A stretch of 64,000 bases of DNA from Chloroflexota bacterium (lineage in GTDB: Bacteria > Chloroflexota > Limnocylindria > Limnocylindrales > CSP1-4): NCBI GenBank assembly GCA_012026785.1, contig VEOW01000115.1:3495-67494 (forward strand), written 5' to 3'. Within the stretch, counting starts at the first letter, position 1. Every line of letters begins with the position of its first letter. A model generated the notes under the pieces. It saw nothing but the letters and a program-made list of their open reading frames with translations, ran no database searches and was not told the DNA's origin. This document shows positions 53,813 through 64,000 of this stretch, in pieces. The position numbers and the translations under genes are program-made.

Positions 53813-53882
53813 GGCGGCAGTGTCGCATGGCGCCGCCCGCATCGCCCCCCATCCCCCCAAGAATCCTCCCATCGCCCCCTCT

Positions 53883-54045
53883 TTGCGTCCCAGGCAACAA
53901 GCGTCGGTTGGACGGCTGGATTCGGTGCCGCGACGTCCGCCAGCCGTCCAGGCTTGCGCCACGTGCAACGTCTCGCGGTTGGATGAGCTGAATCGCGGTC
54001 GGCCGTCCCGTCAACCGTTCCTTGTTGCGCACCGCGCAAACGGCC
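53883..54045. repeat. repeat element copy A: three CAAC-N8-GTTG palindromes (53895-53910, 53966-53981, 54012-54027) in the hppD leader
   Basis: Read directly. The flanking 28 nt (ttgcgtcccaggcaacaagcgtcggttg) matches the reverse complement of 63258-63292 at 28/29. Confidence 0.6.
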
Positions 54046-54211
54046 GGGCCGGATGAGCGATGAGCAGCCCGTGGCCCGGGAGTGTCGCACCGGCGTTGCG
54101 CGACGACCGCCACCGCGGGCGCGGCCTCGAGGGACCGAGGACTACCATGACCGCAACTTGCTCCGGCGGGGCCATCGAGCCCCGGCACTGCAGCACAGGA
54201 GCCCGCGTCCC

Positions 54212-55403: not shown

Positions 55404-55679
55404 TCAGGGCCGCAATCGGTAGGTACTCTCGGACCGCCGGGCGACGCGGAGGATTACGACGGACCTCGTCGACGGGTCGACGGTATAGACGACGCGCAGC
55501 GGGCCGACGCGGATCCTCCATGCGTCGCTGCTCACGATCTTCTCGCAGCCCGGTGGCCGAGGATCCAGACCCAGGGAGGCGATCGGCCCGGCCAGGCGGG
55601 CGGCGGCGTCAACCGGCAATCGCCTGAGCTCGCGCTCCGCCGGCCGGGTCATGACGACCCGCCAGGGACGGTCGCTCAC
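55404..55679 (-). CDS. RelE/ParE-family toxin
   Basis: About 90 aa with RelE-like fold motifs (AERELRRLP, WRIRVGPLRVVYTVD...VVILRVARR). GTG overlaps the antitoxin stop. Confidence 0.7.
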   Translation of the reverse strand: MSDRPWRVVMTRPAERELRRLPVDAAARLAGPIASLGLDPRPPGCEKIVSSDAWRIRVGPLRVVYTVDPSTRSVVILRVARRSESTYRLRP

Positions 55680-55936
55680 TCCTCGTCGGTGCCATAGCGT
55701 GCCCGTGTCTCGGCGGCCAGCTCGTGGAACACCTCGGCCGCGTCGCGGCCGCCGTAGCGACGGTAGTCATCCAGGGCGGCCTTGGCCGCGGCTGCGTCTT
55801 CGTCGTCCTCGAGCGCGCGCAGCCACTGGCCGAGCGCCTCTTCGACGATGTCGCGCACGGAACGATCGCGCCGCGCCGCCTCGACTTTGATGGCCCGATA
55901 CAGCTCCGGGTCCGAGAGATCAAGCGTAACCTTCAT
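55676..55936 (-). CDS. ribbon-helix-helix (CopG/Phd-like) antitoxin
   Basis: MKVTLDLSDPELYRAIKVEAARRDRSVRDIVEEAL RHH motif. Start at the internal ATG 55936. Confidence 0.65.
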   Translation of the reverse strand: MKVTLDLSDPELYRAIKVEAARRDRSVRDIVEEALGQWLRALEDDEDAAAAKAALDDYRRYGGRDAAEVFHELAAETRARYGTDEE

Positions 55937-56039
55937 GGCGCCAGCATACCAGTATGCTGGGTTGCCAGCTTGGTCCCGTCGCACCGCCGCCGGCGATGCC
56001 GGCGGCGGTGAACGTGCGGGTCGAGCGTCTGCCCCGCGC

Positions 56040-56954
56040 CTACTGGCTGAACTGGAAGCTCTCGACGATCGGCATCCCTTCGGCGAGAAATGGCTCGAAT
56101 TCGGCCGAGGTCGTCGAGTACATGAAGATGACGAGCACGCCGCGACCGGGGACGTCGAGAAGAATGCCCCGCATGCGCTCGTCCTCGGGATCGACCCCCT
56201 CAGGAAGGTCCGAGTCGCCCGGGCAGGTGCCTGTCCAGTCGGGACTGCGCCACACGTCGAACTGTTTGCCGGTCAGGCCGCCGATCGTGACGTCCACCAC
56301 CCCGGACACCGCCAGGACTTCGTTGGCCGTCATGGCGGCCACCTTCTCGGCCGCCGTCGCGCCAGAGTTGCTCTCTGCCGATTCGCAGCTGAACCACGGG
56401 CTCGGATGCACGCCCATGAAGATTGACTGGGCCAGTTCATCGGAGCGTGCGTGCTGGGCCTGGTTGGCGGGCGTGTCCGGGAACAGCGCGAAGTAGTTCG
56501 ACTCGTCGTAGGTGTTGACCCAGCCCTCCGGGACGCTGAAGCGGAACCCCGGCGTGAAGGACGCGGTCTCGTGCGTGCCGGCAGCCATGATCCCGGCGCC
56601 GTTGGCGTCAGCGACGGCAGCGGGCGGATACCACGCCGGATACCGGGCGCTCGACGATGGGGCCGCGGATGGCGAGGCCGCTGGCGTCGGCGTGGGCTGG
56701 CCAGCGACATTGGCCGGGCTGGCGGGCAGGAACTGCCAGATCGCGAAGGCGGCGATGATCACCGCGGCGGCCGCCGCGAGGTAGGTGAAGATCCGATTCA
56801 CGGGTGCGGTCCTCCCAACGAGGTGCACCACGCGACGCTGGCGGTTGACGGAGATGCGTGCGGCGACGGTGTCGACGACCCGGTCGGGCATGGAGTCCGG
56901 CCCGTCCTCGAACCAGTGCCGCAGGACACGCCCGATGTCGGAGCGCTCGTTCAT
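56040..56954 (-). CDS. putative membrane-spanning anti-sigma factor
   Basis: Immediately downstream of, and overlapping (ATGA), an ECF sigma gene. Single TM helix (IFTYLAAAAAVIIAAFAIWQFL) and a Pro/Ala-rich periplasmic region. Confidence 0.5.
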   Translation of the reverse strand: MNERSDIGRVLRHWFEDGPDSMPDRVVDTVAARISVNRQRRVVHLVGRTAPVNRIFTYLAAAAAVIIAAFAIWQFLPASPANVAGQPTPTPAASPSAAPSSSARYPAWYPPAAVADANGAGIMAAGTHETASFTPGFRFSVPEGWVNTYDESNYFALFPDTPANQAQHARSDELAQSIFMGVHPSPWFSCESAESNSGATAAEKVAAMTANEVLAVSGVVDVTIGGLTGKQFDVWRSPDWTGTCPGDSDLPEGVDPEDERMRGILLDVPGRGVLVIFMYSTTSAEFEPFLAEGMPIVESFQFSQ

Positions 56955-57514
56955 GCCGAATACCCTCCGACGGCCGGGGCGCGGGCCTCTGCGTCAAGCG
57001 CTGCTCGCATGGCGCGGTGGGCGTGGTGGAGTCGTGAGCGGACGGACCCCGCCGGCATGCCGAGGAGCTCGGCGATCTCGGACGGGGCGTAGCCCACGAA
57101 GTGATGCAGGACGAGGACCGCGCGCTCGTCGGGCTTGAGCCGCCTGAACCCGCGGTCGAGCTGGTCGCGATCGGCCACGCGGAGGAGGTCGTCCGGAGCG
57201 GCCGGGCCCTCGAGCGGCAGAGCGCGAAGCTGGGCATAGCGGCGGCGCTCACGCGTCGCCTGGGCGATGCAGACGTTCGTCAGCAGCCGATGGGTCCACG
57301 CATCGAACCGGTCCGGATCGCGAAGGCCCGGGAGGTCACGCCAGGCGATCACCAGCGCGTCCTGCAGGGCATCCTCGGCCCGGTCGACGTCACGGAGGAT
57401 CCGGTGGGCGATCGCGAAGAGACGGTCGCCGCGAAGGCGAACCAGGTCCATGAAGGCCTCCTGGTCGCCTCGCCGTGCCCGCTCCACGAGGTCGCGATCC
57501 ACCGACACCACCAC
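56951..57514 (-). CDS. ECF-type RNA polymerase sigma-70 factor
   Basis: Region 2 (DALQDALVIAWRDLPGL...FDAWTHRLLTN) and region 4 (ERAVLVLHHFVGYAPSEIAELLGMPAGSVRSRL). Confidence 0.85.
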   Translation of the reverse strand: MVVSVDRDLVERARRGDQEAFMDLVRLRGDRLFAIAHRILRDVDRAEDALQDALVIAWRDLPGLRDPDRFDAWTHRLLTNVCIAQATRERRRYAQLRALPLEGPAAPDDLLRVADRDQLDRGFRRLKPDERAVLVLHHFVGYAPSEIAELLGMPAGSVRSRLHHAHRAMRAALDAEARAPAVGGYSA

Positions 57515-59238: not shown

Positions 59239-60272
59239 AGGGCGGCCACGTCCGCGAGACGCACGCTCCGGCCGGGGCGCCGTGGCGGCTGGCCGCGGCG
59301 CGACGCTGGGACGCCGGCGAGTGGCTCGACCTGGAGGTCGTGCGGCGCCGGCTCGTGTCCGCCGATCCCCGGCGAGCCCACAACTCGATCCTCTTTCGAC
59401 AGCCGCTGACGACGCTCGACGACCTGCTCGTTCGGGGGCTTCGAATCGAGGTCCTGGCCGAGCTCGTCGAGGGCTTCGAACCCCGCGGGGCGCCCGAGGA
59501 CGATGACGCGGTCCTCGACCCAGCCGACCTCGTCTTCGGCCGGCCGATCCTGCAGCCGCCGGCGTTCCGCGACTTCTATGCGTTCGAACGGCATGTCCGG
59601 ACGATGTGGGAACGCCGCGGCGGCGAGATCCCCGAGGCCTGGTACCGCCTGCCGATCTTCTACATCTCGAACACCTCGGAGCTGCGCGGGCCGGGTGAGC
59701 CGGTCTGGGCGCCGCGTGGCAGCCAGGAGCTGGACTTCGAGCTGGAGGTCGGCGCCATCGTCGACACACCCGCGGTCGACCTGGCCGAGGAGCACGCCGA
59801 GGCCGTCATCGGCGGCTACTTCGTCCTGAACGACTGGTCGGCGCGAGACCTGCAGCGCGACGAGACGACCGTCCGGCTCGGGCCAGCCAAGGGCAAGGAC
59901 TTCGCGGCCTCGATCGGGCCTTGGATCGTGACGCCCGACGAGCTCGCCGATGCCCGGGTGGAGGGCTCAACTGGCCCGGACCTCGCGATGTCCGCGTCCG
60001 TCCAGGACGCGGCCGGCAGCGTGACGGCGATCTCGCGGGGCACGTGGGCGAGCGCCCAGCACTCGTTCGGGGCGATGCTCGCCCGGGCCTCGGCCGACGT
60101 CCACCTTCGGGCCGGCGAGATCGTCGGCAGCGGCACGGTCGGCGGCGGCTGCCTGCTCGAGGTGAAGGACGAGACGCTGGGCCGGTGGCTGGCGCCGGGC
60201 GACGTCGTGCGCCTGTCGATCGAGCGCCTCGGCGTCCTCGAGAGTCCGGTCATCGAGCGCCCCGGACGCTGA
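59235..60272 (+). CDS. fumarylacetoacetate-hydrolase (FAH) family protein
   Basis: GTG overlapping the PEBP stop. FAH-fold motifs (GYFVLNDWSARDLQ, GPAKGKDF, GEIVGSGTVGGG). Confidence 0.75.
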   Translation: MKGGHVRETHAPAGAPWRLAAARRWDAGEWLDLEVVRRRLVSADPRRAHNSILFRQPLTTLDDLLVRGLRIEVLAELVEGFEPRGAPEDDDAVLDPADLVFGRPILQPPAFRDFYAFERHVRTMWERRGGEIPEAWYRLPIFYISNTSELRGPGEPVWAPRGSQELDFELEVGAIVDTPAVDLAEEHAEAVIGGYFVLNDWSARDLQRDETTVRLGPAKGKDFAASIGPWIVTPDELADARVEGSTGPDLAMSASVQDAAGSVTAISRGTWASAQHSFGAMLARASADVHLRAGEIVGSGTVGGGCLLEVKDETLGRWLAPGDVVRLSIERLGVLESPVIERPGR

Positions 60273-60336
60273 GCGGCGGCGCCCGGGCCGTCCGCGGCGC
60301 CGTGGTCCGTCGCCGCGTCCCCTTGCCCCGCCCCAG

Positions 60337-60510
60337 CCGCGTCCCCTGTCAGGTGACGGATTCGATGGGGGTTGGTCACGTTGTCCCCTGGAGGGGGACG
60401 AAACGACGGTTTCGGGCCCTCTGGAGGTCCGCAGGTGGTCGTTGTCTCCCCTCCACAGGTGACAGAGCGTCGGTGCGCCGTCGCCACTGACCCCTCTCAG
60501 GGGACACGCC
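60337..60510. repeat. four degenerate tandem imperfect palindromes (GTCCCCT...AGGGGAC type) in the tauE leader
   Basis: gtcccctgtcaggtgac, gtcccctggagggggac, tctcccctccacaggtgac and gacccctctcaggggac spaced about 42-64 nt. Flanking ggtc(ac)gttgtc(t)cccct is also repeated. Confidence 0.5.
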
Positions 60511-60637
60511 TCGCGATTGACAAGCCGGCACCATTACGCCACTATCCAGACTATTCCCACTGATTCAGTGGAAACACTTGGATAGTCGTGATCCGAGGCT
60601 CGTCCCCGCCCCGACCAAGCGCCTGGAGGATCCGTCC

Positions 60638-62642: not shown

Positions 62643-62670
62643 GCCGACATTATTCACCTCGAATATCTTT

Positions 62671-62689
62671 ATGTCAAGCCTCTTGACAT
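62671..62689. promoter_or_regulatory. perfect palindrome ATGTCAAG-cct-CTTGACAT, probable MarR operator overlapping a TTGACA-16-TAGAGT promoter
   Basis: Read directly in the AT-rich MarR-divergent intergenic region. The -35 of the plus-strand promoter is the right half-site. Confidence 0.5.
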
Positions 62690-62782
62690 CGTTCGATTCC
62701 GGTGCTAGAGTTCCCCCAGATAGTTCGAGATCAAGAGTCTTTGACTCGAATATCACAAGTATGAGGGAAAGCGAGGACAGAC

Positions 62783-63003: not shown

Positions 63004-63104
63004 CGCCCGCGCCTGAGCTCTCGCTCGAGGGCCGGACATCCGGCCCGAACCCTCGCTAGCCCACGACTGGCCTCCGCCGACGCGGAGGCCAGTTCGATTC
63101 GCCC

Positions 63105-63292
63105 TCCGCCGCTCGGTTTGCACACGCTGCAACAACCGACGGTTGGACGTCCGACTGCAGGCCCCAAAGGCCTGTCGGGTGCCTCAAACCGTCATCCGTT
63201 GCGCCTGGAGCAACGACATACGGTTGGGCGGCGGTGGAGTGGGGTCGCCCCGGAGCTCAACCGTCGCTTGTTGCCTGGGACGCAAGACAAGG
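63105..63292. repeat. repeat element copy B (inverted relative to copy A): CAAC-N8-GTTG palindromes at 63130-63145, 63211-63226 and 63258-63273
   Basis: Same three-palindrome architecture and spacing (81/47 nt versus 71/46 nt in copy A). The terminal 28-33 nt are about 80-97% identical to the reverse complement of copy A ends. Confidence 0.6.
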
Positions 63293-64000
63293 CGGTGCTC
63301 ATCCCCCGTGTGTACGAGACGGACAACCTCGGACATCGAAGCCATCGCAGCGGCACCGGTCAGCCCGCTCCCTGGCCGGACGTCGCACCGGATCTCATCG
63401 AACCCGAGTTCCCCATAAGCCAGCAGGCGTGCCGCGAGCGCCGCGACCTCGTCGGACCCGACCGGCGCCGTGAACGAGAACAGGTCGACGGATCGCCGGA
63501 GCGTGGCCGGGTCGCGACCGATCTCCTGGCAGGCTGCATCGACCTCACGCGTCAGCGCCTCGAGCCGCTCCCGGCCGCCTTCGGCGTCCGATTCGACCCA
63601 CCAGTTCCATTCGTCGGCGTACCGTGCTGCCAGCCGAATGGCCTTCGGCTTGCCCGCGGCGATGACGATCGGGATACCGGAAGGCCGAGGGCCGCGCAGC
63701 ACGAGCTCCGCGTCGGGCACGCGGTAGTACTCGCCATCCAGGGATGCCCGCCCCTCCCGCAGCAGGCCGTGGATCACGGCGATCGCCTCCGCGAAGCGGG
63801 AATAGCGGTGGTCGGCGTCGATGCCGAACGGGGGATAGTCGTCCGGCGTATTGCCGAGTCCGATGCCGAGGCGGTATCGGCCGCCCGAGATCTCGTCCAG
63901 GGTGACGGCAGAGCGCGCGACGAGGGTCGGATGGCGGTACGGGTTGTTGATCACGGCGTGGCCGATGCCGATCGTCGTTGTCGAGGCGGCGATCGCGGCG
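63184..64000 (-). CDS. luciferase-like (LLM-class, flavin/F420-dependent) oxidoreductase, 5' end beyond window
   Basis: TIM-barrel LLM motifs (GRYRLGIGLG, IPIVIAAGKP). The ORF has no start inside the window. The C-terminal about 35 codons overlap repeat copy B. Confidence 0.65.
   Translation of the reverse strand, partial: AAIAASTTTIGIGHAVINNPYRHPTLVARSAVTLDEISGGRYRLGIGLGNTPDDYPPFGIDADHRYSRFAEAIAVIHGLLREGRASLDGEYYRVPDAELVLRGPRPSGIPIVIAAGKPKAIRLAARYADEWNWWVESDAEGGRERLEALTREVDAACQEIGRDPATLRRSVDLFSFTAPVGSDEVAALAARLLAYGELGFDEIRCDVRPGSGLTGAAAMASMSEVVRLVHTGDEHRLVLRPRQQATVELRGDPTPPPPNRMSLLQAQRMTV

Follow-up and report, generated by a model that had tools for sequence, protein, structure and literature searches.

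The window, by which we mean the whole 64,000-nt stretch of DNA analysed here (G+C content 71%), carries two full copies of a short palindromic repeat. Copy A lies in the intergenic region between a DinB-like gene and the divergently oriented hppD, 171 nt upstream of the hppD ATG. Copy B lies between convergent genes, beside a terminator-like hairpin, and overlaps the coding 3′ end of an ORF (63184..63954 and beyond, minus strand) of the LLM/luciferase-like oxidoreductase family (PF00296). Both copies are marked by the palindromic motif CAAC-N8-GTTG, which occurs six times in the window (at 53895, 53966, 54012, 63130, 63211, and 63258), every instance being confined to copies A and B. With an expected count of 0.24, and with six or more instances in 0 of 100 dinucleotide-preserving shuffles of the 64-kb window, the motif triplets stand well above chance, as a preliminary description of this DNA had supposed.

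The likeness between the two copies extends beyond the short palindromes. They can be aligned end to end, from TTGCGTCCC to GCAAAC, with unrelated flanks on either side, and the core that they share runs from End-1 to End-2 at 53883..54041 on the plus strand in copy A (alignments; nhmmer E=3.5e-41) and at 63116-63285 on the minus strand in copy B (alignment). Global alignment gives 73% identity in inverted orientation vs 66% in direct orientation; each copy is itself ∼65% identical to its own reverse complement, and the unit is therefore quasi-palindromic. End-1 (TTGCGTCCCAGGCAACAAGCGNCGGTTG) is 27/28 identical (96%) between the left side of copy A and the right side of copy B, and End-2 (GGTCGGMCGTC...CAACCG..TTGTTGC-N7-GCAAAC) is 70% identical between the copies, compared with only 54% for the interior. 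Copy B is thus genuinely inverted relative to copy A, in agreement with the preliminary description, and the ends are conserved beyond the interior. The end identities of 80–97% over 28–33 nt given there hold for End-1; End-2 falls short of them. Taken at the sequence level, the combination of conserved ends (96% for End-1) and a drifted interior (54%) points to selection on the ends. A full copy measures ∼160–190 bp, the shared core being 159–170 bp and the inserted segment at the site of copy B 188 bp.

The element has a modular build. A 28-mer, TTGC-N7-GCAACAA-N4-CGGTTG, is exact in all four terminal arms of copies A and B and, with up to three mismatches, recurs in the centre of each copy (expected 0.01). 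Each of them makes up one half of a 41-nt dyad, CAACCG-N6-GTTGC-N7-GCAAC-N6-CGGTTG. Scored along the window as a template with 22 specified positions, the dyad resolves a full copy into three 41-bp modules set 71–81 bp apart, of which the outer two form the terminal inverted repeats. Copy A consists of module 1, the End-1 arm (53870..53910; 18/22; 28-mer exact; motif at 53895), module 2 in the centre (53941..53981; 20/22; motif at 53966), and module 3, the End-2 arm (54012..54052; 17/22; 28-mer exact on the minus strand; motif at 54012); their centres at 53890, 53961, and 54032 are spaced by exactly 71 + 71 bp. In copy B, the corresponding modules are the End-2 arm (63105..63145; 16/22; motif at 63130), a central module (63186..63226; 21/22; motif at 63211), and the End-1 arm (63258..63298; 19/22; motif at 63258; 27/28 identical to End-1 of copy A), with centres at 63125, 63206, and 63278 and spacings of 81 + 72 bp. 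The central module of copy B, an inverted repeat reading AAACCG-N6-GTTGC-N7-GCAAC-N6-CGGTTG, is the best preserved of all, and the 17-nt arm core of this copy is 94% complementary. No other site scored above 16/22 in the rest of the window or in the DNA of relatives. From these template scores, the 16-bp palindromes of the preliminary description are correctly placed and are best understood as the better-preserved halves of larger dyads, three to a copy.

GC-rich hairpins lie between the modules, at 53909..53950 in copy A, where an 11-bp perfect stem (TGGACGGCTGG/CCAGCCGTCCA) forms an inverted repeat, and at 63151..63178 in copy B (CCGACTGCAGGCC-CCAAA-GGCCTGTCGG; sequence and fold). Adjoining End-2 is a subterminal box, GGTCGGCCGTCC (53997..54008, plus strand, in copy A), which sequence comparison also places in copy B and in a third, partial copy described below. 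The termini of the copies pair in single-strand folds. A concatenated six-frame translation of both copies had no protein homolog at E≤10 among 5.8 billion proteins, and consensus scans for sigma-70-like promoters and intrinsic terminators found none inside copies A or B.

At the site of copy A, comparison with relatives shows an enlarged intergenic region. The hppD protein of the window itself occurs only on short same-strain metagenome contigs (L108–L111; 99.95–100% identity), and the closest other relatives, at 85–92% identity, belong to MAGs labelled Chloroflexi or Candidatus Limnocylindria/Limnocylindrales. The host is accordingly placed among uncultured high-GC Chloroflexota, and an actinobacterial origin was rejected. 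The gap from the DinB-like gene to hppD is 94–134 bp in four relatives (L114, L115, L119, and L128) vs 400 bp in the window. Those four carry one GAGTGTCGCAC-type box by the DinB-like start codon, followed within 4–20 bp by GGACTACCATG. The window gap holds AGTGTCGCA twice, as a 9-bp direct repeat on the plus strand (53819..53827 and 54081..54089) that brackets 253 bp including copy A. This repeat is a candidate target-site duplication, the box being single in relatives, with a shuffle p of ∼0.06 and a bracketed length of 253 bp that exceeds the 159-bp core.

Two features of the same neighbourhood are recorded here in their own right. The boxes GAGTGTCGCAC (or GAGTGTGGCAT) and GGACTACCATG are kept across relatives in the DinB-like/hppD intergenic region (window 54080-54150) and are probably native promoter or operator elements of the two genes. 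Directly downstream of hppD (55404-57514), the window encodes a toxin of the ParE family, accompanied by a small partner ORF, together with an ECF sigma factor and a protein of 304 aa that matches nothing in Pfam; in relatives, this position is taken by DUF998/TetR or cNMP-binding genes, so that the block is lineage-specific.

At the site of copy B, the insertion is visible both in the reading frame of the LLM gene and as an allelic difference within the species. All 120 listed LLM homologs cover only 84–85% of the window ORF, and the nine that were aligned end two residues past a conserved VVRLVH (e.g. ...HEG*). The window ORF runs on for 38 further residues, through the junction and copy B (63184..63297, minus strand), and this C-terminal tail has no counterpart among the 120 listed relatives. 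A conspecific contig, L120 (Logan SRR30756392), has the empty site: its positions 730-1254 are 100% identical to window 63102-62578, and positions 22-729 correspond to window 64000-63291. The 188-bp segment in between (63103..63290, minus strand; blastn of L120 against the window) is missing, and the normal LLM stop codon is retained. Contigs from three further samples (L121, L122, and L124) have the filled allele and encode a 335-aa LLM protein. With empty and filled alleles both found, copy B is a true insertion/deletion polymorphism within the species and no assembly artefact. Distant syntenic orthologs (L125–L127, with LLM, a 77-aa gene, and MarR) carry no element at this position or at that of the third copy.

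No significant direct repeat flanks the site of copy B. In their LLM part, the filled and empty alleles show 13 differences, 12 of them inside a hyper-diverged 34-nt patch at the LLM 3′ end, next to End-1 (63296..63329, minus strand); among these is a 2-nt indel by which the native TGA stop is lost. Outside the patch, there is one difference in ∼675 nt on the LLM side, and the 525 nt across the insertion are identical. Some outgroup-like states are retained by each allele. As read from the allele sequences, this pattern points to either a short conversion tract or error-prone repair; it is unlike what simple cut-and-paste insertion would predict and suggests a contribution from recombination.

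Public short-read contigs break inside a copy (L111 begins at window 54024, within copy A) or at its edge (L123, from another sample, begins exactly at 63102), and L122 begins within the third copy. Such breaks are consistent with a repeat and/or with co-existing filled and empty alleles in the samples. A further same-strain contig break, at 57335-57362, was considered as a possible repeat and rejected, the DNA there being ordinary coding sequence.

The two copies reported in the preliminary description are joined by a partial third, copy C, which lies just past the right edge of the window, ∼150–240 bp beyond its end, on three same-strain contigs (L124 77-170, L121 1-90, and L122 1-55). Copy C comprises the End-2 half, GGTCGGCCGTCCAACCGTCGGTTGTTGCAGCGGGTGCAAAC, ∼40 bp upstream of the LLM start codon. 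Its End-2 is 90% identical to that of copy B, and one module (17/22) remains, the 5′ half being either degenerate or truncated. Copies B and C have the same orientation and flank the LLM gene on both sides. A similar sequence, G-Y-CGRAT(n)CGA, stands 6–12 nt past End-2 in all three copies (54042-54060; 63103-63115; L124 160-180), as GCCGGATGAGCGA in copy A, GGCGAATCGA in copy B, where it is native flank, and GTCGGATTCGA in copy C; this could be a target-site preference or chance.

These three copies, two full and one truncated, all lie within ∼10.5 kb, and the remaining 53 kb of the window has none. When ∼108 kb of non-redundant DNA from relatives was searched with an nhmmer profile of the element, no copy was found, and all three sites are empty there. 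Scanning a genome collection with the arm consensus (17 specified bases) gave at least 107 matches, each of them single and due to chance, in unrelated taxa of mostly lower GC. A metagenome scan with a 24-base two-arm pattern returned a single locus (L112), which is coding DNA of 42% GC and hence a chance match. The same scan missed copy A from JGI sample 3300029304, and the collection therefore covers the organism poorly. Two viral-contig scans gave no match, and neither did a distant blastn of copy A against plasmids.

We consider it probable, at moderate confidence, that the element is a lineage-specific, non-coding, non-autonomous MITE-type insertion in an uncultured, high-GC, Limnocylindria-like Chloroflexota species. 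The element is small and non-coding, has inverted terminal modules and conserved ends, is polymorphic within the species, and is absent in relatives, and it therefore fits this class. It falls under the usual length of such elements (less than about 500 bp) without coding capacity, it has terminal inverted repeats, and it shows presence/absence polymorphism with an intact empty site, to which the diverged 34-nt patch is a caveat. Of the two readings that had been offered at the outset, the small mobile or REP-like repeat family is thus the one sustained, by the presence or absence of copy B in conspecifics, the three sites empty in relatives, and the conserved ends around a drifted interior.

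Bacterial examples of MITEs include the Correia/NEMIS elements of Neisseria, RUP of Streptococcus, and Nezha of cyanobacteria. Like bacterial MITEs in general, the element is a non-coding unit of 100–200 bp with terminal inverted repeats of ∼28–45 bp and no transposase inside; it occupies intergenic positions beside promoters and terminators, is polymorphic in the species, and has conserved ends and a drifted interior. It differs from them in that no parent IS with matching ends was found, in that three copies are known so far, and in that the terminal motif is repeated once more in the centre, giving a third dyad module, regularly spaced at ∼71 bp. Unlike Correia elements, which duplicate a TA target, it has no clear or consistent target-site duplication. 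Among the 38 window ORFs scanned (picked by codon-position GC and searched against Pfam), all of them ordinary chromosomal genes, there was no transposase, integrase, or RAYT and no cognate autonomous IS.

On the MITE-type reading, a transposase or recombinase whose gene lies elsewhere in the genome would bind the CAAC/GTTG half-sites of the terminal modules, as a dimer or multimer, would then pair End-1 with End-2, and would move or copy the element. The effects at the three insertion sites look passive: with copy A, the divergent promoter region between the DinB-like gene and hppD has grown from ∼100 bp to 400 bp, copy B destroys the LLM stop codon and adds the 38-residue tail, and copy C lies ∼40 bp upstream of the LLM start. 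The tail of LLM recalls the Rickettsia palindromic elements, in which a palindromic repeat in the coding frame adds residues to a protein that is otherwise conserved, here the 38 C-terminal ones. Rickettsia palindromic elements are in-frame insertions inside genes and are widespread in Rickettsia; the LLM read-through, unlike these, follows the loss of a stop codon at a gene end and is a single instance.

An active counterpart of the MITE-type reading can be imagined, and we hold it to be improbable. The element would then be a mobile cassette of binding sites, spreading up to six CAAC-N8-GTTG dyads and recruiting a multimeric DNA-binding protein, host- or element-encoded, wherever it lands, thereby rewiring the expression of hppD and tyrosine catabolism and of neighbouring genes. 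Its mode of spread would be unusual, leaving dense substitutions in a short tract at the junction in place of a target duplication of fixed length. The phasing of such a cassette could be about one helical turn between dyads within modules and about seven turns between modules.

The alternative closest in kind is a REP/BIME/REPIN-type repeat, in which the 41-bp dyads would be clustered extragenic palindromes of alternating orientation, spread by a RAYT (an IS200/IS605-like tyrosine transposase) acting on single-stranded hairpins without target duplication. The resemblance to REP, BIME, and REPIN sequences moved by RAYTs (PMC3116915, PMC3337134, PMC3733652) is real: the imperfect palindromic units are clustered with linkers, each module is able to form a hairpin or cruciform, the sites are extragenic or at 3′ ends, with copy B beside a terminator-like hairpin between convergent genes in a typical REP location, and no clear target-site duplication is seen. 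GTAG-type REPs have also been reported in Chloroflexi, in Thermomicrobium roseum (PMC3733652). A tagged REP, however, is a short stem-loop that carries GTAG or CGTC as an unpaired tag on one of its ends, the CGTC type having a stem of 8–9 bp and a loop of 4–5 nt (PMC3733652). When judged against stems of 5–13 or 8–9 bp and loops of 2–20 or 4–5 nt, the modules have no such unpaired tag at their ends: GTAG is absent, and CGTC occurs only inside a dyad arm (CAACCGTC). Their central stem is 5–6 bp with a 7-nt loop, compared with 8–9 bp and 4–5 nt in CGTC REPs, and the units are 41-bp dyads with four half-sites, unlike the simple stem-loops of 20–40 nt that make up REPs. They also form a three-module unit with two distinct ends and do not behave as free singlets or doublets, and no RAYT or Y1 transposase was found nearby, among the 38 ORFs scanned. 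We therefore regard a REP-type origin as unlikely. Somewhat less likely still is local recombination, by which one ancestral insertion would have been copied nearby through gene conversion or illegitimate recombination, and the polymorphism at the site of copy B would be a short tract imported or lost. The clustering of three copies within ∼10.5 kb, with B and C bracketing one gene in direct orientation, would suit such copying, as would the junction patch that holds 12 of the 13 allele differences with outgroup-like states in each allele, and the lack of a consistent target-site duplication. Conversion, on the other hand, needs flanking homology, and the flanks of the three sites are unrelated and do not share it; copy A runs opposite to B and C, and its interior is only 54% identical to that of B against 96% for End-1, which speaks for older independent copies with constrained ends.

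A cis-regulatory array had been the other proposal of the preliminary description, with the palindromes serving as operators of a dimeric factor, the neighbouring MarR, Rrf2, or another, that would co-regulate hppD and the LLM locus. Dyads of 4-8-4 form spaced ∼12–13 bp apart would match the typical geometry of helix-turn-helix dimers, copies A and C are upstream of genes, and all three copies have the same direction relative to the adjacent gene. Yet the motif is missing upstream of hppD and LLM in all relatives, and copy B sits away from any promoter, where two genes converge 3′ to 3′ and within a coding tail, and the species can do without it. Nor does the local MarR fare well as the recogniser, given that its own promoter has an unrelated operator-like palindrome that is also conserved in L125 and L126 (ATGTCAAG-AGG-CTTGACAT); the TauE-Rrf2 operon, for its part, has no CAAC-N8-GTTG upstream. 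As the primary explanation, regulation at both loci is very doubtful and was set aside, and a DNA-binding protein may make secondary use of the sites. A structured RNA (a leader, an sRNA, or a 3′-UTR element) is the least credible of these readings, and we give it next to no weight: the termini pair into a long stem, the fold is somewhat more stable than in shuffled sequences, and the copies all face the same way with respect to the genes that they overlap or adjoin, but the z-scores (-1.7 and -2.4) are weak, the positions of the internal hairpins are not conserved between copies A and B, and orthologous loci are without the element. Rfam 15, run over the whole window at the gathering threshold, returned two tRNAs only, and the copy A region had no relevant match at E≤1, the best being an 18-bit snoRNA hit (E=0.63).

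Other palindromes were noted in the vicinity of the two regulator genes. The divergent promoter region of MarR and the 77-aa gene (62643-62782) contains, besides the perfect palindrome already mentioned, a second one, TCGAGTCAAAGACTCTTGATCTCGA, and both are conserved in L125 and L126; they are probably the MarR operator. Upstream of the TauE-Rrf2 operon (60260-60600) are several palindromes of the GTCCCC...GGGGAC and CAGGTGAC types, e.g. GTTGTCCCCTGGAGGGGGACGAAAC, with no Rfam match at the gathering threshold. As separate candidates for the element, an integron attC site, a dif/pdif Xer site, a plasmid centromere, and a CRISPR array were rejected on architecture: a cassette array, an integrase, and cas genes are all lacking, and the spacing differs; the copies lie 9 kb apart amid syntenic housekeeping genes, with LLM itself syntenic in relatives.

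The repeat family is not previously described, and the kind of element, a MITE-like palindromic repeat, is ordinary; the finding opens no new mechanism, and its main use is in annotation and strain typing. If the MITE-type reading is correct, this would be the first small non-autonomous repeat family described from Limnocylindria-like Chloroflexota, an abundant but uncultured lineage of soil and wastewater. The element would account for assembly breaks in this region and, in at least one case, for a gene model extended in error, that of the 335-aa LLM protein with its repeat-encoded tail, and for annotators the palindromes upstream of hppD would represent inserted DNA and no conserved operator. 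The insertion polymorphism within the population would in turn be usable as a strain marker.
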